NCBI GenBank assembly: GCA_905178155.1
Contig: CAJINV010000002.1
Coordinates: 3,176,515-3,240,514 of the forward strand
Length of the DNA: 64,000 bases
From: Amoebophrya sp. A120
Lineage: Eukaryota > Protista > Dinoflagellata
Direction of reading: 5' to 3'
Numbering within the stretch: the stretch's first letter is position 1; each line of letters starts with the position of its first letter. Under the pieces are notes generated by a model. That model ran no database searches. It was not told where the DNA came from and saw only the letters and a list, made by a program, of their open reading frames with translations. Both the position numbers and the translations under genes were made by a program. Below are positions 15,458 through 64,000 of the stretch, in pieces.

Positions 15458-18400
15458 ATGCCAGGCTTGACAGAACTCCCTTTTCTGTCTAGTCCTCCTC
15501 CGCTACAGGAAGGATCGTTAGAAGATGATTATCAGGATAATACCGTAGAAATCATAGACTACCGAAGTGGCCAACACGGCAACTTTTTGGGCGGTGGTCA
15601 ACAATATCTTCAGGACATAGCACGTAGAACATACGGTAGTTGTGGCACTTCTCCACTTAATCACAATGTGAACCAAAGAACAAACACGGGTTTATTACAC
15701 ACCACTCTAAACCCGGAGAATTCATTTCCCTTCGAGCTCCACGCCAACGACCCTAGAGGACAGCTGCTCGCGTTTTTTTCGGGCGAAGAAGGCCAGACTC
15801 CGGACCAAATTTACCCAGACGGAACACCAGCAACCATGGCGGACTCCAGGGGGTATTGCAGCAAGGAGGCAAATATGCTGATCTTGAATACCATTAACCT
15901 GCATATGCCGTCTTCGCCGAATAACGAAAGGAGAAAGGCGGACAGCTGGATGCGCTTGTGGGTGGGGTCAAACACGGTGACCATGACGAGCATTATGGGT
16001 TTGGAAAAACTAGCGGAGTTTTACCAAACGAAGGACCCAATCCCGTTGACCGTGAACCCCGGGGGGCAAAATCCGAAGATGACAAAAAGCACGACAGGAT
16101 GCTGTGGACTGAGCCCGAATATGGTTGCGGTACTATAGAAGCAGCTCCAGAAGATGTTTTATTCTCGTACTATGCATGACAAGTTCTTCTTCTTCATCTT
16201 CTTCTTACTAGAAACAGGTTTATGAAAGTGTTTACCTGTATTCTATCATCCTCCACCAGCTCCAAAACCAAAATAATTCTATACAGTGGATAAATTTTAC
16301 CATGCATGAACCGCCTTTCACAAAATCACATCTCAGTTTCTTTCCTCCCCCGCCTGTTCGGGCTGCATCGCGACCGCCCTCCGTATATGAATTGCAAATA
16401 TGTGTGGGTCTGGACGAAGGTGGTAACTTGTCATGGTAAATCTGAAGCATACAAGAATCTGTGTTGCATGAGTGCCAAAAGCTGTCCACTTTCGACCAAG
16501 TTGGGAGGGAGGTTCTCATGCAGGATAGGCATGGCAGAGACCTCGCAGAGTCTGTCATGCTAAGTCCTGCATTCCGGACCTCATGGGTCATGGAAAATCT
16601 GCACTGCAAGTTTACACTCTTCCAGACCCAGACACTTTTGCACAGGATACCGTAACCGCGCGAAAACCGACCACAGAATACACCACTACCTGCCCTACAT
16701 GCTGGCGGTCATTCCCCATTTCGAATCTATGGATGTGTCAGGATCGAAATCAAGAAAATCGAAATAATTTGTGATGCATAAAATGGATACCACTTGAGGC
16801 CGCAGTTTCCAAGTGGCGCATGACAATTTCGGGAGCACCAAGATCCAGTCTGTCATGCTGTTTGGGCAAAGAAGACTGCTCCTCTCATGCTACTCTGGCA
16901 GCGCACTCCATACCCCAAAACAGGCTTGCAATCGGCCTCATTTGCCTGCTCCCCAACACAGGCCTTACGTGCCCTACATTTTACGCATTACAAATTTTTC
17001 GATTTTGGCGATTTCGGTCCTGACACTCTCATAGAATCCCACCGTGCGGTAATGAAGTGCGTCGCCTCGGCAATCTGCATGGCCTTTCTCGCGGGCTCTA
17101 GCTATGTGCCGGCGTCGAGAGCAAAGACCGACAAGACGACTGCCGACACAACCGAGAACAACAACAACGGGGTGCCTCTTGATGAGCTCTTTATCGAATT
17201 GGAACAGAAGGGCACCTGGTCAGCTTTGTATGTCTTAGGTGCGTTGCCGTACGAAGTTTCCGTGTGGACCCGATCTGCGGTGAATAAAGCGGCGATGCTG
17301 AAGCGATTGAGGAACGACCAGAATAACGCTAGCAATAATAACAACAACATCCCCTACGCCGTCAGGATGCTGAATGTTTTGGAAAAAATTACCGTTGGCA
17401 GGATTTTCGAGCCGGCGAATTCCGGACAAATGCTGACAAAAGAGCAGGAAAAGGACATGAAATATGGAGTTCTCAAACGTTACAGTCTCAACTGTTACAA
17501 CATGAATTTGTCATGCAAAAATACCATCATCATCCACGCGACCAAGCTGCTTCGCATGACAAATTTGCCTAGGGCTAAACAGCGCCGAAACGACCTGTGC
17601 GGAATTTGTAATGCTACAGGCGCAAGAGCCTTCCCCTTTCGCTTTTCCCATTCTTGCATCACAAATCCATGTAACAGCTGAGAGTGTAACAGTTGAGAAC
17701 GCCATATGAAGCTGCTCGCGGATTTGTTGCTCGAATGCGCCGCGAACTGGGTCCCGATGCTGCAGCCGGATAACTTGCTGCTCCAGATCCAGATGGACAA
17801 TTTGCTCCGGCTCTGCGCGCAGGTGGGGCGCAACCTGCCGCCGGACCAGCAGGGGGATTCTTCTATGGCGGCGGTAGCTCATTTATTTGGAAATTTTTTT
17901 TTTTTTTCTATATAGCGCTTAAATAGCTAGCAAGATATGCATTTATTGGCCCCATTACTGTAGCTAAAGGCGGAGTGCCCGTCTGCGAAAGGAAAACGAA
18001 GGCCGATACTGCGGCAACCGATGGCGTGGTAGACCATGGAGCTGGGGCACGGATTCGTCTACAAATCCGTTCAGCAGGAGGTCGTGCTTGCCGGATCGTG
18101 GGTGCTCCGCTGTTCCGGAATCTGGCTGAAGACTTCGAATTGGATACGTTAACTAGCTACAGTAATGGGGCATTTGGCATGCAAAAGAGAATGCGTAGCT
18201 AAGTGGTATAGCTAAAAAAAAAAATATTTTACAAATAAATGAGCTACCGCCGCCATATCTTCGCCCGCCAAATTCATCGAGGCTTTGGTCACGAAGACGC
18301 TGAAATTGAACATGAACGAGGCCCCGACGCAACAGTTCGTGGAAAAGCTATTGTGAGGAAAAATCACCCCTCCCCCTATTGAACACGCATCCGTCGGAGA

Positions 18401-21400
18401 ATTTGTGATGCAGATTTGTGACCACAAATCCTGTCTGTCTTGCAAGAAGGCAAAGTCAGAGAGCCCGCCACATTATGCAGGCGGTTTGTGATGCTGCTCG
18501 CCTTACAGCATAGACATTTGTCATGCTAGGCGCCTAAGTCAAAACCTCTCGGCTCAGCCTTGGCATGTTCCTGCAGTCCTCTACTGCAAGACAAATCCGA
18601 TTTGTGTCTGGAAATCCAGCATTAGAAACTTCGTTTCGATATGGGGAGGGGGTCTCTTTCCATTTGATAGAAGCTGTTGCAGCTTCTCGCTGCGGCCACG
18701 CCGGAGGAGCAGGAAGAACACGATAACGACCCGAGTGACACCAGTTCTATGCACACGAAAAAATCATCCTCCGTCGGCAACAACTTCCAGCGGTGCAGGT
18801 TACTCCTCACCGCCCTGTATCAACTGCAAAAGTATCGCACTCGTATAAATGCATGACAAATTATTTCCTCAGCATGAGAAATAAAATTTGTAATGCGGAT
18901 TTCCCTTGAGAGAAAAAGATTTGTAATGCATGACTGCAATGCGAGTGCGATACTTTTGCACAGGATGCCCTGGAGGCCTACCGCATGAATCCGAACATTA
19001 CGGCGACCATTCTCAATGATATGCAAGAAAAAAACTGTGTGAGTGTAAGTCTGTGATGCAGGAAATGCAAAACTGTTACACTTGTCATGCTGGATCTGCC
19101 TTACAGCCTACTTTCATACGTGTTTCCACGTGCTAGCGGCGAATGACAGATTAATGCAAAACGAATTTGTGATGCTGCTCTTCCTAAAAAGTTGCACTTG
19201 CACAGTTTTCTTCCTGGATAAACGAGATTATCCCATTGCTGAACAAAAGTAAATCCCACGGCGGCATGCACCTCTGCGACCTATCCTGTGCAAAAGTATC
19301 GTACTCGTACTAATTGCAAATATGCATGACAAATCTTCTTCCTAAGGTAAAACAGCATTACAAATTCGACTTCTCTCCTTGCCAAAATTTGCAATGCAAT
19401 TTATACGAGTACGATACTTTTGCAGTTCATACGACCTCGCCTTGCCCTATTTTGCGGGGCTGAAAAAAGCCTGCGCGGGGCAGCTGCCGCGGTTACCGGA
19501 GATTTTGGAAATCTGCCGGAAGTACTGCAAAATCCCTTTCAAGGGCTACATCGCGTATTACCAAAACGCCGGGCCTCTATTCCCTCTCGAACAGGAAAGG
19601 CGAAGTGCGGAGCAGTTGGAAGAGATGTTTCTCCCGGACGACACTTTATTTGACGAGTTTCTCGGCTACCGAGAAACCTTTGCGGACGCGGTCCGCGAGA
19701 TCGTAACCACCAGCGAGGAAACGTTGGCGGTCGTTCGCGGCTCTTTGGAAAAAGTTTCCGCGATTTTCCAAAAAGCGTCGCAGCTGCAGGTACAAGCCGA
19801 GACCGCGAAACTGCCCTTAGTGAACCTTCCGCACCCGAGCGGGGCGGGGGCCGCGGTTGAGCAGTTGGATGATTTGCTGCTCGAGCTGGAGGAGCATTTC
19901 TTCTTTTTGAGCTGTTTAGCCCGGAACATCCAGGGGCTGCACATGCCGGAAGTGTCGACGACTTTGGTGAACCTGTTCAAGCTGTTGCTATTATGTATTG
20001 CAAAAGTATCGTGCTAGTACAAATTGCATCACAAATTTTGGCAAGAAGGAAAGTGGAATTTGTGATGCTGTTTTGCCTTTGTAAAAACATTTGTCATGCA
20101 TATTATGCAATTAGTACGAGTAGGATACTTTTGCACAGGATAGCTATCGAGCAACAACAACGCGAATTTAATCAAGGGTTTCTTATACCGATCGCGCGTT
20201 CTGTGCTCAACGTTTCTGCGGTTCTGCTCGGGGTACGTGATTATGAATCGCAAAAGTATCGTACTAGTAGAAATTGCAATACAAAGTTCCTTAGCATGAG
20301 AAATGGAATTTGTAATGCGGATTTACGTTGGCAAAATGATTTGTAATGCACGACTGCAATTCATTTTACGAGTGCGATGCTTTTGCACAGGATAGTGACG
20401 GGTCTTCTCGCCGAAGAGGACGACACGGAGGTTTTTCACCAGCTGTATCTCCTCTGTATCTTCAGTTTAACTGCCCATCCGATGGAAATCCAGTGGAAGT
20501 TGATGTCGACAAGTGCTACCGCTTCCTCCAGCGGGAAATCAACGAACAAATCCACCGCGAGTACGGGCTCGGGCCTGATCGCAAAGTCAAGCTCTTCCTC
20601 CTCTTCCGACAGAACCGGAAACCACAGAGACGGCAGCAGCAGAACTCAAGATATGAATTCTGCGGATAAGAATTCCATCGAGGACAACCTACCCGATTTA
20701 GTCGCCTCGGAATTACAAAGCAAGCAGCTTTTCCCACCGACGGCGAGCAGCACGGGGGGGAATAGCGTTCCTTTATCCCCCGCAGAAGTCTTCTTCACGT
20801 TGATCATCCAACGAAATTGGTCCTTCAAATCCAGGCAAGACCATTTAGGCGCTGTGTGCCTGTTGAAATGCGCACAGTGCGTCGAGATTGGGCCCAAACA
20901 CATGGTTCCTGCTGCTCTCGGTGGAGGTGGAGCATCTACTTCATCAAGCCCCCAAGAACATCAACTACAGCAGCCGCAATTGTCCACCTCGCAGTCGGGA
21001 ACAATAATTCCAGAGATCTTAATCCAGTGGGCCATCGAGTTCTGTGAGCGAACGATTTTCATTCTGACCACGCACGCGAGCACGAAAACGTTCGAGAAGC
21101 AGTTCCCGAACGCAACAGCAGTAGAGTCTTCCCAACAGCAAGAGAAGCAGAATCAGGCGAACACAGCGAAGGTGATCTACGACAGCCGAACAGCGGAGGT
21201 TCTGGCGCAGATTTTGGCGATTCTGTCCAGCTACAACACCAGTATTGCGGAGAAAGTTCTCGGGAAACACTTCGTCACCGCGGTCGGGGTTTTGGCTGGG
21301 GAGATTGAGAAGTTTATTGTACTAAACGGGAAAATTTTTATGCAGCCGAACAACCAGCAATATAGAGCCTCCAACGCAATAAACAACGGAGACCGATCGG

Positions 21401-24400
21401 CCGCGGGAGCTGCAGGGGCGAATTCGACAAGAACGTCGAGAACGAGGTCGACTTCGGATGTGAAAGCGAGCAGCAAAACGACTGTGAGACATGCCCAGCA
21501 AAACAAAAACCCGCACCAGAGCTCTGTAGAAAAGATCTTGAAACACTTGACTTGTTTGATCCGCCACTCGTTGCTGGCAGATAAGAAAACGTTCGGGGCG
21601 GCATCCTCTTCGAAAAGCAGCACCCCGACGAACGCTGGAGTCTCGCCGATCGCGGTTAATATTGGTGGTGGCTCTAGCAGTATCGCAAGAAAAGACTGTT
21701 TCACTGTAAACTTGTGATGCATAAAACGGAACGCAAATGCGTTTGTCTTGCGACACATGCACGCCATTGGATTTTTAGCTGTGTTTTCCCGTAGGAATCA
21801 CGCGTGCCAAGTTTTCTTTGTCATGTGTAACAAACTTGTGATGCAAATCTTGCAAAATCATCACAGTGAAACAGTTTCTTCGTAGGATAAGCAGTAGCAC
21901 CAGCTCTCTGTCCTTCTTCCCGCCGGCCAGGACGATTTCGGACTCAGGGAATCATAGCAACTCGTCTGGTAGCGCCGGAGGAAGTAGTAATTCGCAGAGC
22001 AGCAAAACTCTTGTCCAAAAATACCTCCTGCCGAATCAGATGCCGGAGAACGCTGGCGCCCGATTGTTGCAGAACTCGAAACTCTGTCTCCAGGCTTTCA
22101 ATGTGAAGTCAAACAACCAGCAAGGGCCGAGCTTGGCGGACATTCTGACAAATAACTACAACATTGAGCACTCCTTGCACCCGTTTATGGAGAAACTCAC
22201 CCACGACGTTGGTACCACTGACAGCGCAGCAATATTAAATCAAGCCGGAACTACATCAGGCAACGGGCTAAGAAACAACAGCGGTAGCAGCTTGTCTAGA
22301 AACAGCCGGCAGCAGAACAGTAGTAGTATTCTAGACCGGGAGGAGATGGAGGCGATTCTGCTGGAAAACGAACTCTACGGGATGGACAATTTCCCGCCGG
22401 GATCTGGAAGAGTTCTTTTGGAAGAGATGATGGGCAATGCGGCGATGCACATGAATAATGGAGCGATGAATAGCGATGGCTTATTGTTGAACAGCAGCGG
22501 CCCCGAAGCAGCAGGTTCTTTCTCCCTACAGATAAGAATTTCCGACATCACCGCGTTGTACCAATTTTCCGACTCTTTCATCGACTTTGTGACGACGGTG
22601 GCAAAATGCCCTCTGCTATTCCCCTTTGTCTGCGAATTCCTGCAGGCTTTACTCAGACAGGCGGATAACCAGGTAGGGGTAGGAGCTCTAGCTGGTGCGG
22701 GGAACAATATTAGTGGACAGCCTGCGGTCGCAGGAACTTCATGTTCATCCACGACTTCCGCAATGAGTTCGACTGCCCAGCAAATAAATAACCCGACGTT
22801 CGTTTTCAAAGCCGTTCTGCAAACCCGGTTAGCGACGACATTACTGCACATGTGCTTGCTACAGTGTCAGCTGAATCCAGAGTATGTTACCGAAGCGCAG
22901 AAGTTGGTTGCAGCAGGAGCGTCAACCAATCTACCCCAAAGTGTCGAGTTGATTGAGCAGCAATTTGTGCAGATGTTCATCCTCTCCAGTAGTGGTGCTG
23001 GCGGACAGCAACAGAACAACGTAAATGTGATATCACAGCAAACCCAAAGCAACCAGATCAGCGCGATTGTCGAGAAGGATTTGCAGACGAAGGTACTCCA
23101 ACTGCTTCTCAACACGTGCCCAGTTTTCACGGACGAATTGTCCTTCAACGAAAAGCAACGGCAGCAGATCCTACTCGCGGGGAAGAACTTACCACGCAGG
23201 TACAACTCGGCCGCGTACTCAGTCCACAATTTGCAGCAAGCGGAACAGGATTTGTTCCTGGGAATGGTCGCGGGAGAGGAGATCGACGAGTTGACCGGGG
23301 TGGGCCATTTTTTCAACGACGACCCAAGAGGGGGCCTACACCATCAACACGGGAACAATAACCTGAATCCGCATAACAATGAACACTACCGGCGGCAGCT
23401 CCAGGCAATGCGGCGCAACCGCCGGTACGCGGCATTGGATGACGCGGAGGCGCGGGTGATTCTCGGGAGACGCATGATGCAGCGGGAGCAGCGACGGAAC
23501 CACCTCGGTGGGGGACCGCAGCTCCGGGGCCTGAACCTCAGGAACAACGCGAGTGTGAACCAGCGCGCGGGCCGGGAACACGCCGGAAATTTTATCCTGA
23601 GCAAAAACGGCCCCACCCCAGAGTTGTCATGCAGATTTGCAATCACAGGAAAACTTGTAATGCGCATCCCCATGAGTATGAGAGGCATTCGCAATCGTTT
23701 ATCATCTGGATTTTATGATGCTGTAAACGGGATACCAGGGCGGCTTTGTGATGCGACTGCACTTGCTAGCTCGCAGTAGAGCACAGAGAAAAACTTGTCA
23801 TGCGTGACTCCAAAAACTTCTGGATCTGTGTTGCAGAGTTCCATCTTGACTCTGCGGTCGTGGGGACGTTTTTACACAGGATAAATGTGACGGCCATCGC
23901 GAACGCCGCGGTGGCGTTGAGCGGGGGAGTGTTGGAGTCGAACAAGTATTTGAATATCTTGCTGTACGACTTGCATAAGCTGTCGCAAACCTTGTGGCTG
24001 TGCGGAAACGGAAATTTGATGCGGATTGTGCAGAACAATAATTTATCCTGTGCAAAAGTATCGTACTCGTACAAATGCTAATGCAAGTCTTGCATTACAA
24101 ATCTTGTTTCCAAGGCAAACCTGCATTACAAATTTTATTTTTCACGCTTAGGGAATTTGTAATTACACGTACTCGGAACAGCTTACATCTCACAAGTAAA
24201 AGTGCATTTTTTGTGCATTGTGATGCACCAGTTGTGAGTTTTTGGTCTTCGCGAAAAAACTTCTTTCTTCCTCGCCTTGAGCGCTAGCCTAAACCCAGTT
24301 TTGTCATTCTGAGCCCATATATGTGCGGCGACTCTGAAGCCTGTAAGTAGCTCAAAGTAAAGAAATCCATCGCGTTTTTTATTTTCCTTTCTAAATTTCA

Positions 24401-32400: not shown

Positions 32401-32977
32401 TGCATAGGGCATTCTGATCTCGGTGGCTTGGTATACGAGTCGAGCTGCGGCCACCGCGAACAGGAACAATGTTGGCCACGGGCTTGGATACGTAGACGGT
32501 GGCCAGGCATACGGTGCCCAGAGCTGGAACGGCACCGGTTGGGGCGGCACCGACTGGTACGATGCCGACTTATCCTGTGTAAAAACGTCATCTTCACGAC
32601 CCAAGGGCTGTCGTGCAAGTTTGCCTACATGTTCACGAGCCACATATTAAGAGGCAGTCTTTCATGGTGTTTTGGAGTTTTTCATGCCCTTCTTTCTGCA
32701 GGGAAAGAAAAGTTGAGTATCGATTGCTGACGCGGCTGCGCGAGCAGCTGATCTCGCTTTGTGTTCTTGCAAACTCCCCATCTTGACCCTGGGGTCATGA
32801 CCTTGTTTTTACAGAGGATGAGACTGGCCTACTTACCAGTCGTACGGCCAGGGCAAGGACGGCTACGGCGAGAAGGGCAGTGGAAAGGCAAAGGGCGGCA
32901 AGAAGGGCGGCAAGAAAGGCGGCAAGAAGGGAGGTAAGCGTCCGCCCAGTGCTGGAGATCGAGATTATTTCTACTAA
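29405..32977 (+). CDS. Putative type I membrane/surface protein: signal peptide, Cys-rich N-terminus, Pro/Ser stalk, TM helix, GGKK-repeat tail
   Basis: Hydrophobic N-terminus and SPSPGP repeats. The TM segment VIAIAVVCGLG|ILISVAWY forms only after removing 31743-32406. Tail ends DRDYFY TAA. Introns between ~29790 and 30820 are not resolved. Confidence 0.6.
30336..30507 (+). repeat. Coding 42-bp tandem repeat x4 (SPSPGPENSPQPAP)
   Basis: Period 42 seen directly. Confidence 0.9.
30868..31623. mobile_element. 756-bp GC-rich insertion with TAGGTAGG motifs, flanked by a 48-bp direct repeat
   Basis: 30820-30867 matches 31624-31671 with one mismatch. Confidence 0.7.
31743..32406. mobile_element. 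Degenerate family C introner containing a nested family D element
   Basis: TATCAAATGCAAATGTGTCTGGGTC...GACACTTTTGCGATGCATA, DR GGGCA. Confidence 0.8.
31972..32277. mobile_element. Introner family D, 306 bp (nested)
   Basis: TIRs, DR AAGCA; body is the reverse complement of 16728-17033. Confidence 0.9.
32571..32820. mobile_element. Introner family E, 250 bp (ends ATG)
   Basis: Imperfect TIRs, DR CGACT/AGACT, frame restored. Confidence 0.75.
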
Positions 32978-52400: not shown

Positions 52401-55400
52401 TTCAGTTTTTTAATGTCCTTCAGCCTGCCCCCGTCCTCCCGATTTTCAAAGAAGCGGCTGCGATTGTGTAGCGCCTGTCTGGCCAGAGAGCCGCGCAACG
52501 TTGCGGCCGCAAAATCAGCAGCGCCATCACTCTCGCCACCCGCGGCCCCGGCGCCGTGTTTCCTTTCCTCGGAATTCTGCGGCGGGGGTCCAGCCAGTGG
52601 GGTGGCGGAGGCTGCGCTTGCGCTTTCTGCCGCGGCGCCCTTGTCTGCAACGATATGCGGAGGCGCACGCTGCACGGGATGCAGAGTGGCTTCGGTGATG
52701 TCCCGTAAGGGGCGGAGAAACGTGTTCAAATGCCTCGCAGCGGGAATCCGACGGCCCCGCGTCGCCCGTCGGTTCAGTGCCGCAACAGACGCAGGCAAAT
52801 GACGAGGCCAATCCTTTTCGCCCCCCCCTTTTACGCAGTTGCTGCTTCAACTGTCCATTGTAGGTTTGGTCGGAGCCGCCCCCGGCGTTTTGCTTGCTAA
52901 ATCGCGGCTATTTTTTTTCCCGAACAATGTGGAGAAGATTGCCGGCGCGGTGGTGAGGTGCCATCCCCTGGGCTCGGCGCGAAATCGCAAAGGCTTGGCG
53001 CCTGTCCGCCACGCCCTTGGCGCGCGGGCGCCGCGAGCCCATGCCGGGTCTGTGGCTTTGCGCGCTCCAGAGGGCCGCGCCCTCCCTGCGGCATGGCCCG
53101 TCCCTTGTGCCTTGCGCATTGGCAGGGCCGCCGGCCGGAGGCAGCGCGCCACCCCCTTTGTCCAGCCTATAGATTTGCTATTTTGCTTGCTATTTCCCCT
53201 GCTAAATCGCAAACGCGCAAAACCTGAGGCAAAACGCTGGGCCCGAGATTGTTGCCGACTTTGGCAGGAAATTTAGCCCGCGCCTTCGGCAAGGGATTTA
53301 GCAAGGAAAATAGCAAGGAAATTAGCAGGCGAATTAGCAAGCAAATTAGCACGCGAAATAGCAAGCAAAATAGCAAGCAAAATAGCACGCGAAATAGCAA
53401 GCGAAATAGCAAGCGAATTAGCAAGGGAGAACAAGTTCGCCCCGCGCTTAATCGGGGCCAAAAAAGGGGGGGCCCATTTGGCGAATTTTTGGGGGGTTTT
53501 TTGGGTGGGCAAATTCGAACACGGGAAAAAAAATAGCCGTCACTTAGCACGGCCCCCGCCGGGGCCGGCTCCGCCCAAGTAGGTTATCACCGAAAAATCC
53601 GCCCTCCCCATATTGCAAAAGGAATTTGCGTTGCTGATGCGTGGCCGCGAGTTGTAGTCCGTTGCAGAACACGCGCGAACACGAACCCAGCAACACGAAT
53701 GGTCTTCATAAATATGGGGGAGCGGCTTTTTCAGTTTCGTAGAACTTTCCGCGGCACCATTGGACTGCGGATGCGCGCGAGGGCTTTCGCGGATATCCGT
53801 GCGAAAGGCTGCGCCCGCCGGGGGGTCGTTGGTGAAGGTCGCGCACTTATGGTCGCGCGTCAAGCAGGTGCACTGGCTCCAGTTCTTTATCTGCTGCAGC
53901 TCTGTGCCCTTGTCAATGTTCAAATGATCCGGCGCGCCGTGTTCCTCGATCATATCCAGATGCGCTTGCTTGACTTGGTCGGAGCCGCCCCCGGCGTTTT
54001 GCTTGCTAAATCGCGGCTATTTTTTTTCCCGAACAATGTGGAGAAGATTGCCGGCGCGGTGGTGAGGTGCCATCCCCTGGGCTCGGCGCGAAATCGCAAA
54101 GGCTTGGCGCCTGTCCGCCACGCCCTTGGCGCGCGGGCGCCGCGAGCCCATGCCGGGTCTGTGGCTTTGCGCGCTCCAGAGGGCCGCGCCCTCCCTGCGG
54201 CATGGCCCGTCCCTTGTGCCTTGCGCATTGGCAGGGCCGCCGGCCGGAGGCAGCGCGCCACCCCCTTTGTCCAGCCTATAGATTTGCTATTTTGCTTGCT
54301 ATTTCCCCTGCTAAATCGCAAACGCGCAAAACCTGAGGCAAAACGCTGGGCCCGAGATTGTTGCCGACTTTGGCAGGAAATTTAGCCCGCGCCTTCGGCA
54401 AGGGATTTAGCAAGGAAAATAGCAAGGAAATTAGCAGGCGAATTAGCAAGCAAATTAGCACGCGAAATAGCAAGCAAAATAGCAAGCAAAATAGCACGCG
54501 AAATAGCAAGCGAAATAGCAAGCGAATTAGCAAGGGAGAACAAGTTCGCCCCGCGCTTAATCGGGGCCAAAAAAGGGGGGGCCCATTTGGCGAATTTTTG
54601 GGGGGTTTTTTGGGTGGGCAAATTCGAACACGGGAAAAAAAATAGCCGTCACTTAGCACGGCCCCCGCCGGGGCCGGCTCCGCCCAACTTGACCTCTTCC
54701 GCCTCGAAGCTCGTCAGCAGTTTGGAACAAACGGCGCCAGTCGTGAGGCAGCACATGTTCAAACAACCGACGAAGCGCGTGCCGACATTTTTGCCGCGGT
54801 GCGCCGAGTTTTCGCAGGGGGTGCAAACTATGCAGTCGACGCCTGCCCAGGCAAAAGGCCGAAGGGACTCATTGGCGGGGTCCTTGAGCGCCGCCAAAGT
54901 ACTGCTTGCGTAAGAATCCTGCTGCTGCGGCGCATGTTCTTCGTTGGCCGCGCAAGCCTCGCACGCTTGCACCGCAACCCGCGCGCTTTCTTTCAAGCCG
55001 CACCACGTGAAGCCAAGCTGCTGGATGGCCACCCCAGTTGCCTCAATTCCCCCATGCGACCGCAAATGCCCAAGGGCCGCAATGCGCTGCTTTTCCGCGT
55101 CGTCGTCGGCGCCGATGACGGTAAGCCAATCCGGATACACCATCAGCGCTTCGGTGGTTTTGCGTCCGTAACCCTGGAACTCTGCGCGGACCTGCAGCTT
55201 GCCCATGCCCGGGGCCAAGCGGAAAAAGTTTTTCTTTGTTTTCCACCACTTCCGCTGCCGCGCGGTAAGTCCCAACGCTTTGGAAGCCGCCCCAATGTCA
55301 GCAGCCCGCAGCAAGAATTCAATCGCGCCATCGGGCAAAGAAAAATTTTTGCCGGCGTTGGACTTTCGCCCGCGCTTTCGTGGGGGGGGCGCGCACTCGC

Positions 55401-58400
55401 TCGCATCCGAAGCAGCCTCCCCATCGCTTTCGCTCAAGTCGCTCAAGCTAACAACGCTCGAAACCGACGGCGCCGGCGCATCTGCTTCCGCTGCACGTTT
55501 GCGAGAGGCCAAGCCAACCGCCACAGGTTCGCCCTCTTGCGTTTCCAAAACCGTTTCGGCCTTCGTTTCGGGGGGCGGGGCAAAGGAAGTCCCCGTCGCT
55601 TCCGCTTTCGGCTGAGCGCCGCGCCTGACAAAGGCGTTGTAGTGGCGGCCATCGTACTCGAGTCGGATCGCCTTCGCGCCGCTTCCGATTTTCTGCGGCT
55701 GCTCTTGAGAACCGGGGGCGGGTTCGATCTGAATCGACAACACTATGCAAAAGAAAAAGCAAACCAGCCCACTACACATCAGAGACAAGAAAGGCACGGG
55801 CCGCAAATTTTCGCAAAACGCGCGCCGCATCCCGCGCAAAAACGACAGCGCGCGGCGTGCCGCTCGGCTCTTTTAGGTGCGGGCGGGCTCATTTTTTCGG
55901 GTAGGGTCCATGACTTTCGCCACAGCCTCCAAAAATGCGTGGCCCAGCCATACCGTTGCCGCGGGGTGCAGAAGTTTTCCCAACCAGGCCAGCCACTTGC
56001 TCTGCTCTGCTAAAACCGCGGGGCCCGCCGGCTCGTCCACTCCGTACTCCCCCACCCAAAACGGACCAAGCTCTTCGCGCTTGTCCGCCATGAAACCCTC
56101 CACCAACTGCTTCACCTTCGGCATGCTGATGCCTGTGGCCGCCGCAATCGAAAGAGGGCAACAATTGCCGTTCCCCTCGATCTTTTGCAAAACATCGGTC
56201 GAAGCCGCACCACAATCGCTGAAAAAACGGAGCCCCCCCCGATATCGTTTCGGGCTTCTGTCATGCTGATCTCCTGAATTTCCCGGGATTTTCGTGGAAA
56301 ATCCTGGGAAACCAGCGAAAGCGCAACCAAGTCCGCGCATTAGCTGAAACAACAACGGGGGGGGCGCCTGTGTTCACGGCCTTAAGCTTCCCCCGGAGCG
56401 GCCGCAGCAGGGGCCTCCGCCGGTTTCTCGCCGCGGATCCACTCGACCCGGCACAGCCACTTGCCCCGTCCCGGCTTGGGGTTGCGGCTGCCGGGGAGCC
56501 TCCCGACTTGGCTCGGCTTGTTGGCGTGCCTGTCCCCCCCTAAAAGGGGGACCATCACCGTGCGGAAATCTTTTTCCGCTGTCGCGCCGCCGGGGACCTG
56601 AGACCACGCCTGCCAGCAGGCCGCCGAAGTGCGGGTCACCAACTGGCAGCGGTGGTCTTCCTTCGCCCTTTCCACCACCCCCGGCGCAGCGTTGTCCAGG
56701 TCGACCAAAAAATATCAAACACGCAAAGCCCCCGCAAAACAGCGCCGCGCTACGGGCGCGCGCGCGAGGTATTGCCCGACGGCTGGGCAGGAAATTGAGC
56801 GACCGCCCAATCCCCCCGGCTCTTCTGTCATGGTGCTTGGCCGCGGCCAATCAAGCAAGCGGCGCCCCTTTCCCCTTGTACGGGCGGCAAGCTAGAAGGA
56901 AAACGCGAACCCGCAACGCCCCCCATGCTACTAAAAGCGCGCGCACGAGGCGGGGGGCGGCGCTGCCCTATCTAGCCAAGGAACGGCCCCGGCGCTGCGC
57001 CACACTGGGCGCGCGCCTTGCAACTCGGGTCGCCTCGCTCGGCCGCCGGCCGGCCAAAGAAATTTTCTCACCAACCGGCGAAAACCTGCGCCGCGACCTT
57101 GGCCGGGGCCTAGGGTTTAGAATCTCCACCGGGCGCCCGCGGCTTTGCAGAAAAACGCCGCAACTCCATTGCGCGCAATGCTTGCGCGCCGTTGCGAAGG
57201 CTTTGCGCGTGCACATGCGTAAAATCCAGTCGGAGCCCATCGGGCGAAAGAAATAATGAAAATCCTTCCCGAGCGCGTTGGGCCGCCACGCCTTCGGGTC
57301 CGCTCGCTGCTCCATGCTGGCGACGCCTGAAAAACAGGAAAGATGAGTGTTGCTATTTGACATGTGAAAAAGGAAACCTCACTACGCGGAAAACGACTGA
57401 AGCGCCCTGCTTCCCCTCCCTTACTATAAGAAAGCGGAAGCGAAAATCTATCGCAACACCCAAGCGAAAAAGAATACCTCCCCCACCACGCAGCGGGTCC
57501 TTGGCCTGTGTCAGGATCAACTTCCGGAGGGCCCCGACCGGCAACAACTTCGTGACCCGTGACCTATCCCCGAAAAAAATGCTGTCCACACAAAGCTGGC
57601 GGCCTCACTGCATACAAGAGCGAAAACGCGAACCGGCAAAACAAAAAAAAAATCCGTTGCCCATCGGCGGGGCAAATGCAAAAAGCCACCACGAGGCCCC
57701 GCCGCCTTCCATGCGCCTGGGGAGTCCATTTTTTTGGGGGATAGGTCATGTCTGCGACAAGGAAGTGCCGCCGCATCCAGATCGTTCGTCACCAACCCTT
57801 CCCCCGTGTACCGGTAACCCGGAAACGCCGACGGCATCGGGGGGGGCGGGGGGGGCAGGTTGTGCAGGCCCGGGCCACCGGCCGTGCGGCCCGCGGGCGG
57901 ATCGATGTTGCGCCCGGACGCTTTGCCGCTCGCCTTCGAATTGTCCCCGCAATCGGAGTCGCTCGCCACAGAAGCCGGGCCCGCGTCGAGCTGCCCGTTG
58001 GTGGGGGCCTGGGTTCCGTCCGGAGCCGGGGCAGCGGGGGCCGGGTCCTGCAGCCAAGAAACGCCCAAGACACTGCCCGGGCCACTGTGCGGAAATGCCG
58101 CCATTAGGCCGGCATCCCGCGTCTTTGTGGCGACATTCGCGGCAAAATCTTTCTGCTCGGGGCTGATGGGCTGCGCCCCTTCCATCGCCATCGCCAACAT
58201 CCCGCCAAGCATGCTGCGCCATAATGGGAAAAAGTGCGCCCAATCAAATCACGGGCGGGGGCCCTTGTATCATAAAAAACAGCCCAAAGCGCCAGGCGCT
58301 GCCTGGCCTGGGCGCCGCAAAAGGCGGAGCCCTTAGCGGGCGGAAACCCTGCAAAGCCTGGGATTTGTCATGCCTAAAAAGCTGCCCGCGCCCTGCAATT

Positions 58401-61400
58401 GCAGGGGCTTGGTTTTTTTTCGTATTTTTTCCTTGGCGCTGAGGCCCTTCCCGAGCGTCTCCAAGCGCTTGAAATTCGCCCACAGCTTCGCCACCTTCAT
58501 ACGAGTGAGCCGCAGGCGGTCGCGCTGCTTGTCCGAGTAAGCGCCCGGGTCACTCATGTCGACCCACCCCGCGGGAGTCAGGCGAGGGGGAAAATTGCCC
58601 GAGTCCCCGAAGCAGAAGTCGGAATCCTGCAAGTCCAGCAAGCCAGCGACCGCCAAGGCCTTGGCCCGGTCGTAATCGCCGGCCACCGAAACGATTTCCA
58701 TGGCCATGGTGTTTGTTGTTTTCTTTCGATTTGCAAGGCGAAACCGAAAAAATGCGAGAAGAAGAAAAACGCGAAGCAACGACAAAGATAAAGAAGCCAG
58801 AAGCGTCGCAAGCTAGTGCGTAGCTGGTGTTTTTTTGCTTAGTAGTCGAGAGGTTTTTTTTTGTGGTTAGTGTGCTCGTTTTTCGTCCGAGGTAGACAAG
58901 TTGTTTTTTTTTGGGTAGCGTGTTCTTTTTTTCGTCTGAACAAGACAAACTGAAGTTGGGCACTGTAAGGGTAATGAAGATGAAACAAGAAAAAAGTAAT
59001 ATAAGCATGAGCCAACACAAAGTCATCATATGCCTATCACGTGACTGCTCACATGATAATCATATGATTTTGCACCCCCATAAGTAAGCCATTTTGAGTT
59101 GTTTCGCTCACATGATAGTCATGTGATTATCATGTGAGGCCCGACGCTCGACAGCGAAAGTATTTTTCCAATTATATGACGCAACGCCCGTCATACGTAC
59201 GAAAGGAAGCGTAAAAACGTGAACGAAACACAACGAAAACAACGAAAGAACGAAAACCGATCGTATACACAATACGACGACAACTCAGATTGCATCCCGT
59301 AAGGCCATGAAAAAAAGTGAAAAAGACAACTCAGCACGAAGCAATTCAGATTACTGCATGCATTACAAGTCTTCTTTTTAAGGTAAATGCGCATTACAAA
59401 TGTTATTCCTCATGCTAAGGAAATTTGTAATGCATTTATACGAGTGCGATTATACTTTTGCAGTTCATATTGCAGTGGCTCGCAGACAAAGCAGAAGACA
59501 TCTTCGCACAGGAACATGAAATCGCTGATAGAACTTCTGCAATACAAATTGCAAATGGAAATGCTTCTGGACCTCCACGACGGGGTGCCCCACCTGAGCA
59601 GGAATTTCTCTCCTACTACGAAAACCACTGGCATAACTCCTCCTCCTCCTCTTACAACTATCCGGAGAGCGTTCTGTTGGAAAGAATATCAACTGCAAAA
59701 ATGTCTGGGTCTGGAAGAGGCGGAGCTTGTCATGCACATTTTGCATGACCCGTGAGGTCTGTTATGCTGGTGCTAGCGTCACTGATTTTTTCAGAGCTTC
59801 TTGATGCTAATTACGCATGAGAAATGCCATCATCTCCGCGTGCCGCGAACTGACTCCTCTTGCTGCAGCTCATGCAACACAGATATTTTCAGAATCCGCA
59901 GACAGCATTACAAGTTCCACTCTTCCAGACCCGGACATATTTGCAATCCATAAAGAAAACCCTACGTTTTGTTCGCGCCGAGGTGTGGGTTCTGCAAAAA
60001 ATTCATGTGCAACCCAGAGATCATTGATGCGGTGAACGTGAACGTGAATCAAGAGCAACAGCAAGGACAAGGTTGCTCCGCCGTAGAAGACGAAGATGAA
60101 GAAGTACTATTCCCTTTCGTGGCGAAAAGCGACGAGTTTTTAGCGGATATAATGCCCAGGATCAGCGAACACGAAGGACTAGGCGAGAGGGAAGATGAAC
60201 AGAAGGAGCAGGAGGAGTCCTCAAGCGCAACCAACCTTGCACCGGAACCTCCAACAGTTGACGTACAACCACAACAACCTGCAGCACCTGCACCGCCCAC
60301 CCCTCGTGCCTGCAGCAAAACGTGTATTGAGACCAACGGTAAATGTCAGGACTTGGAGTGTATCAAATGCAAAAATGTCTGGGTCTGGAAGAGTTGTGTT
60401 TGTAGACTTGTCATGCAGATTGTCCATGACCCATGAGGTCTGGAATGCGAGCCTTAGCATGACAGACTCTGCGACGAGGTCTCTGCCATGCCTATCCTGC
60501 ATGAGAAACTCCCTTCCTTTTTTGTTCCTCCAGCGTGGAGCGGCAGCACCATCGTGGTTTTTTTTTCTCCCCGCGACGCGATCACTGGATCCCGGTAGCG
60601 CTAGATCCCTTTCCGCAGGCGCTCCTAAAGTGGGCCTTTTTACCGGTGCCGGCGCACTAAAAAAGAACCCCGAGACGGGGAAAAACAGAACCACGAAGGA
60701 GAAGACGGAGGTGGGGCACAGAAGAAAAGCGGAGTGGGGCACTAGGGAAAAAGAAGAGAAGAAAAGACGAGCGGGGGGGGAAGGGGCTAAAGAGCAAAAA
60801 AAGAGCTGCAACTGTCTGGGAGTTTGCATGTCGAAGTCGTTCGGACTAGGTTTATTACCAAAGTGGCGCCAGGGTTGTTATTTTAAAGATTGCGCTAAGG
60901 CAGCACCCCCCTTCCCCAAGGGGCCCCCCGGGGCGGGCGCGGTGGCGGCTCTGCTAACGCGGAGCTCCAAAGTCCGACTCTACCTATGCGCATAAAAAGG
61001 GTGCGCGGAAGCAGGTCGGTAAGGTGCTTGAAAGGGGCATGCTTTGGGGTTGCCCGCCATCGTGATAGGGTCAACGTGTGTGACCAATAGGCCCCCAGTA
61101 TATCATAGCGCGCAACCGACCACAAAAGCAGAAGAGTTTAAAGTTTGTAAGAATAACCCAGCAAGGCAACACTGGAGCTCCACCTTGCTCGCGGGCTTGG
61201 ATGGTAAATCAGGTCAGCCACATCTAACGCCCACTGGCCGTATACACGCGTAAGAAATCGGAAACGGTTCAGCGGATGCGGTCGGGTGGTACCTGTAGGA
61301 CGTGGAACGGGTGTCCACCTAGGGGTATTGGCAGAGGCTAAATCTGTTCTAACGCCACGGTATTGGCAGAGGCTAAATCTGTTCTAACGCCACCCTGACA

Positions 61401-64000
61401 GGAGTCAAAGGTCAAAACGATACGATGCGATAACTTGGTCCAAAGTGTACAGCTTTTGGCACTCATGCAACACAGATTTTTGCATGCTTCAGATTTACCA
61501 TGCAACCTTCCAGACCACCCAGACACGTTTGCAATGCATAGAGTGTAACGGGGTGGACATGGACGATTTGCCAAATCGGACAGAATATGCAGCGCAAAAG
61601 CATCGTACTCGTAGTAATTGCAATCATGCATTGCAAATCTCTCTCTTAAGCCAAATCAGCATTGCAAATTTCATTTTTCATGCTGAGGAAATTTGTAATG
61701 CATTTATACGAGTAAGTACTACGATACTTCTGCAATGCATACAGAACTCCTCTCTTTCGAAATCGAAAGGGTGCATCCCGCGACCTTGACTGCGGAAGGA
61801 GCAGAGGAAGTTTGTGAAGATGCAGGAGATGAAGCAGGAGAAGCTGCAAGAAAGGAAAAGCAAAACGAATCGTTTCGCACGGCGAGGACCATGACCCGCA
61901 CGGAGCGCATCCACTACGTGCTGGTTTGGCCGCACAGGAACAGGAACTCCGCTTTCGGCCTGAAAGCTACGTCAAACTCTTTTCATTCCAGTTTTACCTC
62001 TACCAGCACAGGAGGCATGGAAATAGCGAGTCCAAGAACAGACGACGATGAAGAAGGAGACCAACCAGAAGAGAAATACAGCAAGCAAAAACAATCTGAA
62101 TACCCACTGACCCTCTTTCTCCCGGGCACGGGCAACATTAACTGGCAGGTCCCTGGCTGTCCCTGGTCCGGCGGGTTCGAGCTGTTGACGAATAAGAACA
62201 AGCTCTTCAACAGCTTCTACATCATGCCCTTAATAGAGGACTACCGGTTGGAATCGGATATGGCGTTCTCAACTGTTACATCCTCAAGTGTTGCGATTGA
62301 TTTGTGATGCAAGAGTGGAAAAAGTGAACGGGTTTACCTTGCGCGTCTTGCATGACAGATTTGGCACAGATTGTCAGCCTGCTTGGCGGCCCTCTGAGAA
62401 TTTGCCATGCGAAGCAGCTTGCTGGTGTCGGTTCTGAACGTAATTTTGCATGACAAATCACGCAACAGGAACAGCTGAGAATGTAACATTTGAGAACGCC
62501 ATATCGGATATGGTTTACATCGAGGACTCCTACGGACACTATCGGTACTATGAATTGCAACAGCAATATCGTACTAGTACTAGAACTTTGCAATCACGCA
62601 TTACAAATCTTTTTCTCAAGGGAAATCAGCATTACAAATTTTATTTCTCATGCTGAGGAAATCGAAATTTGTAATGCATTTATACGAGTGCGATACTTTT
62701 GCAATCCATAGGTACTGCGAGAAGACGATTGAACTGCTATTGAAACACGCTGTGCAGCATATCGAGGCGAATGCAGTATCCCGAGCAATAAAAGCATCGC
62801 GATTGCACTCGTATAGAACAAGATCGCAGTCGTGCATGACGAATCTCCCTCCTTTAGGTGAATCAGCATGACAAATTCATCCACTTTCCGACTTGAAAAA
62901 AATTGTAAATATATGCATTTTAGAGGTAGTCGTGCCATGCTTTAGCTTTTGCGATGCATCCGCCGCAATCAACTACAACTGTTACCTCGACTATGAGAAA
63001 TTCTACCTAACTGGCATCTCCATGGGCGGCACTGGGTGCTGGCAAATTCTGGCGCACTGCGGGAAATATTTCGCCGCTTGTGTTCCGATAGTTGGGAACC
63101 CGGATTGGGGCGTGACTGGGAAACGGATGGACTTGAACTTTGGGGTATACGGATTGACGGTAGGGTACAACGAGGAGGATTTTCTTGATCCGGCGGAAGT
63201 AGACACAGCGCGGACGGGAATAGCTGTTGCACCTACTTCGAGTGGTGTTGTTGATGGTGCTAATATTGCGACAGGTGGCGCAACAGGAGTCGAGCCTGCA
63301 ATTGTGCTGGCACAGCATCCCCATAATAAACCGGAGCCCGACCCCTTCGGATTCGATGCAGAATCCCTTCCAGACGACGACGCAGACCCAGAAGTTGCGA
63401 AAATCGTGGAGAAATTGCGGAGTAGAAGTTCCTCAAAGTGCACTAACATCTCCTGCGTCGACGAGCTTGAAACAGATTGTCATGCCGACACGCATGGTGC
63501 AGCTCCCTCCGATTGTCTTGACCACAACGCATCGGAACGGAACTGGTCCAATTTGGTCGGGAAATTGGTGGCGTCATTTTCCTCCAGTGCGACAGCATCT
63601 GAGGCAGCAGTTTCAGGGACAAGTTCTTCTTCAACTTCTACGAGAAGCAAGAACTTGTTCACGACGAGCAGCGGCAGCGTCACAACGACTTCCCTCAGCG
63701 GCCCGATCTCGATTTTCGAGCAAACTTTGGCGGCACTAGCGGAGATCTTCCTCAGTCGGCTGTTGCAAGGGACAGGACGAGGACGACGAGGACCGCGTTC
63801 ATCCGGGGACCAATCAGCATCTTCGGAGGACGATCATGTGGGCGGAGATTCTTCACGGCCGCAGTCTACAGATGCGCACGTCGCAACCTCCGTGGCAGTA
63901 GCTCCGGGCGAGAATCATGAAGAGAGCACGGGACGAGGACGACCTCCAAACGACCCGAACAACAAACACTCGAACAGCAATTCTGCGCTCCTCTCCTGCT
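46465..64000 (+). CDS. Large protein with an alpha/beta-hydrolase (predicted esterase/peptidase) domain; 15 introners; runs off the window
   Basis: The frame is preserved across all 15 excisions, including the 9.2-kb one. Motifs YPLTLFLPGTG and DYEKFYLTGISMGGTGCWQILAHCGKYFAACVPIVG (GxSxG elbow, ~62990-63100). The start codon is tentative. Confidence 0.7.
46511..46773. mobile_element. Introner family C, 263 bp
   Basis: TIRs, DR AAAGA. Confidence 0.9.
46833..47076. mobile_element. Introner family C, 244 bp
   Basis: TIRs, DR CAGCA. Confidence 0.9.
48140..48291. mobile_element. Introner family A, 152 bp
   Basis: TIRs, DR CCTCT. Confidence 0.9.
48514..48665. mobile_element. Introner family A, 152 bp
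   Basis: TIRs, DR CCTGA/CCGGA. Confidence 0.85.
48984..49101. mobile_element. Small singleton introner, 118 bp
   Basis: TATCCGCAAAAAAAAACC...GGTTTTTTTTTCTGTGGATA; a 4-nt DR CCTT/CCAT is needed to restore the frame. Confidence 0.7.
49316..49530. mobile_element. Singleton introner, 215 bp
   Basis: AAAAAAGTGTTACAGTTA/TAACTGTAACACTTTTTT TIR, DR TACGG. Confidence 0.9.
49712..49946. mobile_element. Introner family B, 235 bp
   Basis: TIRs, DR ACAAG. Confidence 0.9.
49992..50243. mobile_element. Singleton introner (B-related), 252 bp, ~50-bp TIR
   Basis: TATAACCTGCTCAGGTGTTACAATCTCAAACGTTACAATAGAATC TIR, DR TCGTA. Confidence 0.9.
52866..53578. mobile_element. 713-bp TIR element (MITE), copy 1
   Basis: TTGGTCGGAGCCG...CGGCTCCGCCCAA, 6-bp TSD GTAGGT, internal AATAGCAAGC repeats. 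Confidence 0.9.
53975..54687. mobile_element. 713-bp TIR element (MITE), copy 2
   Basis: Apparently identical to copy 1, 6-bp TSD CTTGAC; removal joins EEVK|QAHLDMIEEHG in frame. Confidence 0.9.
55620..56200 (-). CDS. OTU-like cysteine protease segment of the transposon (two exons)
   Basis: KIEGNGNCCPLSIA (Cys motif), W.GH..LEAVA, IRLEYDGRHYNAF (His motif). Confidence 0.6.
56382..56720 (-). CDS. RepB'-type (archaeo-eukaryotic primase-like) segment of the transposon
   Basis: VDLD...LVTRTS..CWQAW...LGGD......VGRLPGSRNPKPG resembles RepB DNA-primase motifs. Confidence 0.6.
59687..59952. mobile_element. Introner family C, 266 bp
   Basis: TIRs, DR AAGAA. Confidence 0.9.
60361..61540. mobile_element. 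Introner family C expanded to 1180 bp by an insert (~60518-61432)
   Basis: Two halves of family C, DR GAGTG, frame restored. Confidence 0.85.
61586..61741. mobile_element. Introner family A, 156 bp
   Basis: TIRs, DR CAGAA. Confidence 0.9.
62259..62503. mobile_element. Introner family B, 245 bp (inverted relative to the other B copies)
   Basis: TIRs, DR TCGGA. Confidence 0.9.
62549..62710. mobile_element. Introner family A, 162 bp
   Basis: TIRs, DR GGTAC. Confidence 0.9.
62777..62960. mobile_element. Highly degenerate introner family A, 184 bp (ends ATC)
   Basis: DR TGCAG/CGCCG; excision joins EANA|AINYN into the hydrolase frame. Confidence 0.65.

Follow-up and report, generated by a model that had tools for sequence, protein, structure and literature searches.

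TAT...ATA introners in an Amoebophrya sp. A120 window: removal with five flanking letters and the case for a single cut register

Related introns and the elements of the window

The non-canonical introns of Amoebophrya A120 include introner elements with inverted and direct repeats that fall into repeated families; the available part of the account (PMC7789003) describes the position of their splice sites with respect to the hairpin as variable, and gives the position and mode of the cut as unknown (Fig. 3 legend). The window analysed here, a stretch of 64,000 nucleotides, holds 55 curated elements with TAT...ATA-type ends that match that partial description in their inverted repeats (TAT, about seven variable letters and then at least three A in the end matrix), their 5-bp direct repeats (DRs; 3-5 nt at the exon/intron borders in that description), their families and the spliced leader-like 5′ end of one message; like the published introners they are spliced without GT-AG, here at 12 joints in RNA-type contigs. 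The elements are already published, and the differences from the same partial account lie in the single register proposed below, N1-TAT...ATA-N4, independent of the repeat, and in an asymmetric constraint on the terminal letters, although Figures S19-S25 of that account, compared by their legends, may bear on the register. A literature search, conducted largely outside subscription journals, found no paper fixing the register or using DR mismatches in Amoebophrya.

The non-conventional introns of Euglena, as presented in parts of PMC12501133 and PMC3935182, share border-blurring direct repeats and a proposed MITE origin and may also share paired ends and fixed motif-to-cut spacers, the border having been solved there, too, from introns that cannot be slid. 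In the present elements the spacer total is five at 12/12 joints, with the register taken from one of them; the code N1-TAT...ATA-N4 differs from the Euglena code N3-CDG...CHG-N5-6 plus purine in having no clear purine rule, and, unlike in Euglena, there is no sign of selection on arm pairing. In Fritillaria borealis, too, transposon-derived elements with TIRs and TSDs are spliced without GT-AG, the major spliceosome being modified there (PMC13326754, PMC11282704, both in part); Fritillaria, however, has U1 and preferred ends, AG-AC and AG-AT, read by a duplicated U2AF, whereas the present elements prefer no end dinucleotide and U1 went undetected in A120. The introners of Polarella and Symbiodinium are likewise dinoflagellate TIR elements that create introns, with a lean towards phase 0, but, according to the portion available of 10.1101/2020.10.14.339549, their G[TCA] and AG come, in several frames, from the TSD or from within the element, and the present elements recruit neither.

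The DRs of five nucleotides are perfect in 37/55 window elements and not in the other 18, and perfect in 363/495 elements of other loci, where copies of window elements match over their full length at 74-93%. TIRs, a TSD of fixed length, short size and many copies were all found, as in MITEs, and the sole transposase-type trace was a below-cutoff integrase zinc-finger hit (Pfam) in a nested insert. Pfam searches with exon pieces of the element-bearing genes gave nothing: 2/14 pieces had hits, both elsewhere, and the exons tested of the genes at 16310..27302 and 35080..45099 had none.

Once each element is removed with five further nucleotides, frames without stops remain that measure 2074, 1600 and 1519 amino acids (the last running off the window end), 591 (already open where the window starts), 574 and 368, which fixes the reading frames. 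On the + strand, as are the elements with imperfect DRs named below, the host gene at 16310..27302 carries the 2074-codon frame after removal of 18 elements, with eight joints seen in X4, and those at 35080..45099 and 46369..64000 carry the frames of 1600 codons (13 elements removed) and 1519 codons (15 removed, open at the window end). The gene at 29187..32977 has high coverage in X1-X3 and four spliced elements, and its RNA contig starts with loose letters that fit the dinoflagellate spliced leader and end in its last five letters as given in PMC7789003, in part, which points to a host of dinoflagellate lineage. X1-X4 were treated as RNA because of their spliced joints and this leader-like end; X1-X3 are three runs of one sample, and all RNA evidence consists of assembled contigs from one study.

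At 12/12 element joints in these contigs the element is removed with exactly five nucleotides, including elements whose DRs match at 3/5 or 1/5 positions, which are spliced at a depth of 309-438 in X1-X3. The degenerate element 30052..30286, with the 5′ end TAC and the DR GACCC/CAAGC (1/5), has the joint 30050>30291 in X1-X3 (depth 309-356) and in X4 (4.5), with a cut range of letters 4-6; at 30532..31678, with a DR of 3/5 (10/11 as a longer repeat), the joint 30529>31682 (X1-X3, depth 421-438) removes five and not 11 additional letters, and an 11-nt DR was discarded on this ground. Removal of the element plus five letters is thus shown, for intact and degraded repeats alike. Among 19 elements of other loci with DRs of at most 2/5, two favoured the same rule, two favoured other lengths and 15 were unclear, some of them probably having mispaired ends. 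Two of 14 joint rows (23648>23786 and 23883>30256, with a short side of 21 letters) were dropped as cross-matches between elements; in the DNA run X5, such cross-matches dominated the joint table.

The explanation judged rather probable is that TAT...ATA introners are removed with exactly five flanking letters in one fixed register by an altered spliceosome, selection on the exonic copy giving the synonymous lean. The register would comprise one letter before TAT and four after ATA; each duplicated letter would then be present once in the exon and once in the intron, and the repeat would be a transposition scar, a 5-bp target-site duplication ignored by the splicing machinery. With palindromic ends, and with one and four adding up to the length of the duplication, an element newly inserted in either direction would leave a seamless mRNA. 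If the register is fixed, tens of thousands of exon borders in A120 would have to be corrected, together with some predicted residues.

Synonymous differences between repeat copies

An earlier note on this DNA had listed 16 imperfect coding DR pairs, 10 differing only synonymously and six not, and all 16 coordinates and codon calls were reproduced. They belong to 50 coding pairs (34 perfect, 16 imperfect), with 5748 and 30532 set aside in keeping with the choice made in that list, and 14/21 of their single mismatches are synonymous. Absent from the list were 30532-31678 (DR 3/5, non-synonymous), 5748-5897 (8-nt DR) and 30052-30286 (DR 1/5), the last found through RNA only and classed as non-synonymous from the sequence; with 30532 and 30052 added, the window tally becomes 10/18 pairs. 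Nine of the 16 junctions lay outside the RNA reading and were described from curated ends and frame: 18349..18669 (AAAGC/GAAGC), 19020..19220 (AATGA/AACGA), 37244..37531 (CGACC/CGGCC), 41519..42019 (GGTCT/GGGCT) and 62777..62960 (TGCAG/CGCCG, two changes, 3′ end ATC), all synonymous; 48514..48665 (CCTGA/CCGGA, Leu/Arg); the short degenerate element 48984..49101 (ACCTT/CCATC, 2/5), where removal with five letters keeps the frame and Thr-Ser is predicted; and two pairs with a letter-5 mismatch, 17463..17706 (TGAAA/TGAAG, synonymous) and 20242..20394 (GTGAT/GTGAC, Met/Thr).

The window share of 10/16 exceeds that expected for random change (0.25-0.34, P 1e-4 to 2e-3) and is marginal against a null of one selected exonic and one free intronic copy (kappa 4, omega assumed at 0-0.2), with a pair-level P of 0.02-0.05. 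The argument of the earlier note, that a freely drifting intronic copy should give mostly non-synonymous differences, leaves out the drift of the exonic copy, which also contributes synonymous changes, so that the neutral synonymous expectation is 35-46%. In a replication set of 344 frame-called elements from other loci, which may not be of the window's species, 39/88 mismatches (44%) were synonymous against 0.35-0.46 expected (P 0.07-1), as were 31/74 pairs; among pairs with a single mismatch the count was 30/60 (P 0.02-0.24 at omega 0.2). The marginal excess of the window did not replicate, and the comparison with a neutral model proposed in the earlier note gave, for these loci rather than genome-wide, a fraction within the neutral range. 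Frames in the replication set came from ORF continuity and a codon model that had the window as its training set, and a check that gave 51 right, none wrong and one uncalled is partly circular for that reason. The synonymous share of the set lies above that of random change (P 5e-5 to 5e-3), which supports purifying selection on the host genes and bears out the view that they are functional; no orthologues of the window genes were found among the other loci. The silent DR differences likely reflect, for the most part, ordinary selection on the copy retained in the message, and the synonymous pattern is in itself ordinary.

A mild constraint on the intronic DR letters, acting for example through spacer length or splicing efficiency, would be compatible with the fixed cut and is considered rather unlikely. 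It draws on the same marginal window excess and on the ratio of 4-fold to 0-fold mismatches, which reaches 5.1 in the window and 2.38 in the loci, where a free copy would give no more than 2; the window, however, is the discovery set, and the interval for the loci (95% CI 1.41-4.02) includes free-copy values. No letter or dinucleotide preference appears at the cut, and an element with a DR of 1/5 is spliced, both of which speak against such a constraint. A constrained intronic copy is unneeded to explain the data.

Terminal letters and the candidate machinery

In the register after DR letter 4 the intron reads N-TAT...ATA-N4, and changes in its terminal letters were scored by gene orientation in 29 frame-called of 46 variants from the loci. 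Letter 1 was changed in no element at the 5′ end (T, +2) and in nine at the 3′ end (P 0.004); letter 2 in two and four, position +3 remaining a purine and position -6 a pyrimidine in every case; and letter 3 in 11 and three, the latter at the A of -7 (P 0.057). The window adds terminal changes of 0 versus 3 and 1 versus 0 (5′ versus 3′). Mutational strand bias was discarded as the cause of the asymmetry, since the lean of letter 1 runs counter to that of letter 3. At inward positions 4-14 the 5′ and 3′ arms do not differ in composition. The U at +2 is unchanged in all frame-called elements, and the A at -7 is changed in three coding elements against about 13 expected at a free site; these three, lacking the proposed branch A, count against a branch role. 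G stands at +1 in 122/394 introns, so that a U2-type G+1 is not the rule, and the 3′ end shows no preference for AG (33/394 versus 28.7 expected); GT...AG occurs in 7/394 under the inferred cut, and the intronic copy shows no drift towards AG (4 versus 4 of 38).

This asymmetry resembles a donor U together with a branch-like A at -7, without AG. In Entamoeba invadens (at -8), diplomonads and parabasalids, a conserved A followed by a pyrimidine also keeps a constant, short spacing to the 3′ cut, but those introns, in the part available of 10.1101/2022.06.08.495308, have GT, AG and a full AYTRAY, while in the present elements A-Y is the constrained part and branching would be deduced from it. 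For the machinery, N-U-R at +1 to +3 would serve as a relaxed donor and the first A in ATA, at -7, as a branch-like residue, and the 3′ site would be set by distance without AG. The snRNA set given for A120, with U2, U4, U5 and U6 but no U1 (PMC7789003, in part), counts in favour of an altered spliceosome. A more specific version, which on sequence grounds can be put forward tentatively and at somewhat less than even probability, is that the Amoebophrya spliceosome dispenses with both G+1 and AG, taking N-U-R as donor, branching at the first A of ATA and cutting seven letters on, so that TAT...ATA would supply donor and branch and insertions would be born as perfect introns at any target sequence. 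If this were true, a conserved spliceosome could function in the absence of both G+1 and AG, fitted to the ends of a transposon and to the length of its duplication, and a complete splice code would be in hand for the elements behind about two thirds of the non-canonical introns of A120.

The same fixed cut could instead be made by a protein endonuclease and a ligase measuring from the hairpin base, in the style of tRNA introns or euglenids, which we regard as unlikely. Such a mechanism requires neither G at +1 nor AG, fixed spacers around paired motifs occur in Euglena (PMC12501133, in part), fold prediction pairs the ends of 48/50 elements of up to 600 nt, and U1 was not detected in A120, according to the part of PMC7789003 available. 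On the other hand, the sense-strand arms of 384 elements show no excess of G-U over A-C (237 versus 265), and at letter 3 the pair-breaking changes in the 5′ arm (11) outnumber the wobble-keeping changes in the 3′ arm (3), which points to a constraint on letters and not on pairs. At 30052 the terminal letters do not pair in the predicted fold, and yet the element is well spliced. No internal complementarity of the DRs that could extend the stem was found.

RNA joints and the position of the cut

The slide ranges of the 12 joints intersect at a single cut, after DR letter 4, which leaves four upstream letters in the message; a cut after letter 5 would fit 11/12 of them as well, and the register is fixed by 26382, in one contig of one run. 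Its intron as spliced, 26381..26575, consists of upstream DR letter 5, the element 26382-26571 and downstream DR letters 1-4, the joint 26380>26576 (X4 contig, depth 12) having no slide and giving the same outcome when recomputed; the pair is non-synonymous, and the mRNA carries a hybrid DR encoding Ser-Gly. The suggestion of the earlier note that mismatches mark the true cut thus proved useful here. The cut after letter 4 is shown once, by this contig, and a T/C difference or an assembly error at 26381 is conceivable.

Seven of the 16 listed junctions could be read in the RNA contigs, four as joints and three inferred from piece ends, so that the scoring of DR alleles in cDNA proposed in the earlier note was achieved for these seven, with one allele each, and not for the other nine. 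Besides 26382, the joints are 32571..32820 (CGACT/AGACT, synonymous, 3′ end ATG; 32566>32822 in 4/4 runs), 23593..23883 (AATTT/AATGT, non-synonymous; 23591>23888, X4) and 24044..24944 (TAATT/TGATT, non-synonymous; 24040>24947, X4), whose mRNAs have upstream letters 1, 4 and 2, respectively. For the three further junctions, X4 piece ends imply that the mRNA carries the upstream copy: letter 4 at 42069..42218 (TTCGT/TTCAT, synonymous; piece starting at 42223), letters 2 and 4 at 43616..43808 (GCTAA/GTTGA, Leu/Leu; piece ending at 43614, with a gap length of 73 in the X4 contig that fits 43813-43885) and letter 1 at 44330..44494 (GAAAC/AAAAC, synonymous; piece ending at 44325, with a gap length of 38 that fits 44496-44533). 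The raw RNA runs X9 and X10 contained six and eight partial reads over 31500-50500.

A fixed cut at the TAT boundary, with the upstream copy wholly exonic and 26381 a strain or assembly difference, is permitted by the 11/12 joints just mentioned and by a tie in the summed codon likelihood (-982.6 for cut 4, -983.1 for cut 5), and is nonetheless quite improbable. The 26382 joint carries the downstream letter 5 with zero slide in contigs otherwise without letter differences; among non-synonymous mismatches of the loci the upstream allele is the commoner codon in 30/44 at letters 1-4 against 4/12 at letter 5, a reversal (Fisher P 0.045); and the phase excess would fall at phase 1. Letter 1 runs against the upstream allele (4/11), a point that weighs against the main explanation. 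With the cut after letter 4, 183/405 introns lie between codons (phase 0), the usual lean (10.1101/2020.10.14.339549, in part), of which a palindromic target matrix accounts for little (35% versus 45%); neighbouring elements show no excess of the same phase (68/184 versus 0.356 expected).

That the junction slides, either DR copy reaching the mRNA under coding constraint on both, as the earlier note had offered, is highly improbable: the window's 14/21 fits both copies coding at omega 0.2, an omega near 0.5 fits the ratio in the loci taken alone, and PMC7789003, in part, speaks of variable splice sites, but the seven readable listed junctions and two further imperfect ones show one form each while unspliced forms persisted as contigs at 3-5%, both copies coding at omega <=0.2 is rejected in the loci (P <=5e-4), the coding-like allele is the upstream one (30/44), and sliding would be costly at DRs matching 1/5 or 3/5. 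A rare variant differing by one letter could go unseen in contigs, and low-level sliding may therefore occur. In the loci, a whole downstream copy in the mRNA would introduce two stops and a cut at letter 3 or later none, and under the fixed cut after letter 4 the mRNA is predicted to carry AAG at 17463 and Thr at 20242.

Retained repeat letters and the position of the cut

The + strand genes of the window are interrupted by palindromic elements that start with TAT, end with ATA and are flanked by 5-nt direct repeats (DRs, letters 1-5); 55 were curated, 37 of them with perfect DRs, and taking out each element plus 5 nt leaves stop-free frames of 2074, 1600, 1519, 591, 574 and 368 codons. Such elements are already known: their anatomy agrees with that of the A120 introner elements, which in the available text of PMC7789003 comprise TAT, about seven variable letters, an A run and DRs of 3-5 nt, with splice sites variable relative to the hairpin and a border position stated as unknown. 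A search of the available literature for a fixed splice register or a DR-mismatch analysis of these elements found no paper.

Spliced forms occur in four contig sets of one study and two samples (X1-X4), presumed to be RNA. Of their 14 joint rows on 17000-33100, two were dismissed as cross-matches and 12 show the removal of an element; all 12 skip the element plus five letters, and six have imperfect DRs. The mRNA keeps upstream letter 1 at 32571 (joint in four runs) and, in contig joints, letter 2 at 24044, letters 1-3 at 30532 (30532-31678) and letter 4 at 23593, while the contig joint at 26382 (26382-26571) has zero slide and combines upstream letter 4 with downstream letter 5, a hybrid repeat that still codes Ser-Gly. 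The element at 30052-30286, missed in the earlier note (DR 1/5, TAC end), is spliced at a depth of 309-356, and upstream alleles at 42069, 43616 and 44330 are implied by the piece ends of one X4 contig. The slide ranges of all 12 joints share one cut, after letter 4. The mismatches thus served as the cut markers that the earlier note had expected, and this foreseen by-product is the useful outcome: a likely fixed 4|5 register, resting on one junction, and a testable splice code. The repeat is dispensable for splicing. Among non-synonymous mismatches, the commoner codon is that of the upstream allele in 30 of 44 cases for letters 1-4 but in 4 of 12 for letter 5 (Fisher P 0.045); for letter 1 alone it is so in 4/11, and in summed codon likelihood cut 4 ties with cut 5.

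A sliding junction, suggested in the same note, is unlikely, since the contigs hold one joint form per junction and two copies both coding at omega ≤0.2 are rejected by the replication loci described below (P ≤5e-4). No alternative joints are listed among the X1-X4 contigs, in which collapse of a rare one-letter variant is possible; unspliced forms were kept as contigs at a depth of 13-23 beside 420-500 for spliced ones. The unspliced contigs 30502-31542 and 32541-32851, at about 3-5% of spliced depth in X1-X3, give a first estimate of intron retention there.

Synonymous mismatches between the repeat copies

The 16 imperfect pairs of the earlier note have the positions and frames it gave them, 10 being synonymous and six not; its list lacked 30532 (DR 3/5) and 30052, with which the count becomes 10/18. 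Single mismatches in the 16 pairs are synonymous in 14 of 21 cases, and perfect coding pairs number 34 of 50. Random change at these DR positions would be synonymous in 25-34%, which the window exceeds (P 1e-4 to 2e-3). The exonic copy of each letter also drifts, mainly at synonymous sites, so the expectation rises above random: one selected and one free copy give 36-50% at omega 0-0.2, and the window excess over this null is marginal (P 0.02-0.05, pair-level simulation, kappa 4).

Replication was sought in metagenome contigs scanned with a 22-nt end motif (at least 132 matches, 126 loci; one assembly among the matches listed), which share element families with the window (full-length matches 74-93%); none of the window's genes was found among them. 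Pairing of ends blind to the DR gave 495 elements, with 5/4/3/≤2 DR matches in 363/95/18/19, and strand and frame were called for 354 of 488 non-nested elements with DR mismatches masked. In the 344 with ≥3/5 DR matches, 39/88 mismatches (44%) and 31/74 pairs are synonymous; the figures are 51/129 for all 354 and 30/60 for single mismatches only. The 39/88 agrees with a fixed cut that leaves the intronic copy free (expected 0.35-0.46, P 0.07-1) and is also compatible with both copies coding at omega 0.5; a frozen exon is rejected (P 5e-5 to 5e-3). The difference between the window and loci shares is not significant (Fisher P 0.09). In these comparisons the random-change null is exceeded, but the loci share fits the selected-plus-free null, and ordinary selection acting on the exonic copy accounts for most of the synonymous lean. 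The intronic letters are possibly under mild constraint (4-fold/0-fold ratio 2.38, 1.41-4.02).

Among the loci mismatches, non-degenerate DR sites carry 12 transitions and 24 transversions, and four-fold sites 14 and 9. Three loci elements (L068:1157, L068:4639, L050:9498) have well-matched arms and 0/5 DR matches; they are possibly recombinants between two elements, in which case exons would be deleted or shuffled.

Constrained intron ends and the mode of removal

Read with the cut after letter 4, the introns are N-TAT...ATA-NNNN, and no preference at the cut was found in 394 of them (G at +1 in 122, terminal AG in 33 with 28.7 expected, GT...AG in 7). Although in DNA the two ends share their three terminal letters, these decay unequally by gene orientation. 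In 46 loci elements with one altered end, 29 of them frame-called, letter 1 changed at no 5' end and nine 3' ends (P 0.004), letter 2 at two (only to G) and four (only to C), and letter 3 at 11 and three (P 0.057), where about 13 changes would be expected of a free terminal site changing as often as 0-fold DR sites do. Window elements contribute three more letter-1 changes at the 3' end and one letter-3 change at the 5' end, giving combined P values of 0.0005 (letter 1) and 0.035 (letter 3). Mutational strand bias cannot lean both ways, and wobble pairing fits letter 1 but predicts the reverse of what letter 3 shows. Constraint falls on U at +2 and a purine at +3 and, towards the other end, on A at -7 and a pyrimidine at -6. 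This is the register of a G-less GUR donor and of a branch A with a pyrimidine after it.

We favour removal by an altered spliceosome that would place the 3' site by distance, on account of this register together with the branch points at fixed -8 in Entamoeba invadens (10.1101/2022.06.08.495308), the modified major spliceosome processing transposon introns in Fritillaria (PMC13326754) and the A120 set of U2, U4, U5 and U6, U1 being undetected (PMC7789003), each as given in the available text. The proposed branch A is missing from three coding elements. A hairpin-measuring endonuclease might act instead, with a parallel in the Euglena spacer code (accessible part of PMC12501133). The arms are able to pair in 48/50 predicted folds; no sense-strand excess of G-U over A-C mismatches was found (237 vs 265), which leaves no visible sign of selection for RNA pairing.

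Under the inferred cut, 183/405 coding introns of loci and window lie between codons (P 2e-6), the DR starting at codon position 3. This phase-0 lean is the familiar one (10.1101/2020.10.14.339549, available text); the inferred cut recruits no target letters, and neither palindromic target preference nor same-phase neighbours account for it.

Individual elements and a spliced-leader end

Element 5748-5897 has a perfect 8-nt direct repeat, the frame being kept by +5 and +8 removal alike. Element 37777-40228 has grown to 2.45 kb through a nested GC-rich tandem array (unit roughly 90 nt), and its +5 removal restores the frame. Element 50295-59469 (9.2 kb, perfect 5-nt DR) contains a large insert nested inside it, with a 713-nt exact repeat and with an ORF (54649-55836, -) whose zf-H2C2/integrase zinc-finger match lies below the cutoff; elements combining TIRs with retro-integrase homology are known from A120 (available text of PMC12130899). 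At 17864-18257, long T/A-rich inverted arms (17883-18240) mark a family different from the common GCAAAA families; its TAT...ATA ends are the same as theirs, and the DR of 5 nt is perfect. The gene at 12306-14387, an EamA-family transporter (E 1e-11), is without elements.

The 5' end of an X1 RNA contig carries 10 loose letters ahead of the genomic AG at 29187 (29187-29189), and together these finish with the five 3'-terminal letters of the dinoflagellate spliced leader as given in the accessible text of PMC7789003. The junction follows a pyrimidine tract ending in CAG and fits spliced-leader trans-splicing, so that canonical AG acceptors appear to serve trans-splicing beside AG-free introners. 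The RNA contig 29187-30050, ungapped and at a depth of more than 300, has an in-frame TGA at 29792-29794 that separates two long open stretches (29405-29791 and from 29795 on) of a Cys-rich protein, for which read-through, selenocysteine or an upstream ORF are the alternatives.
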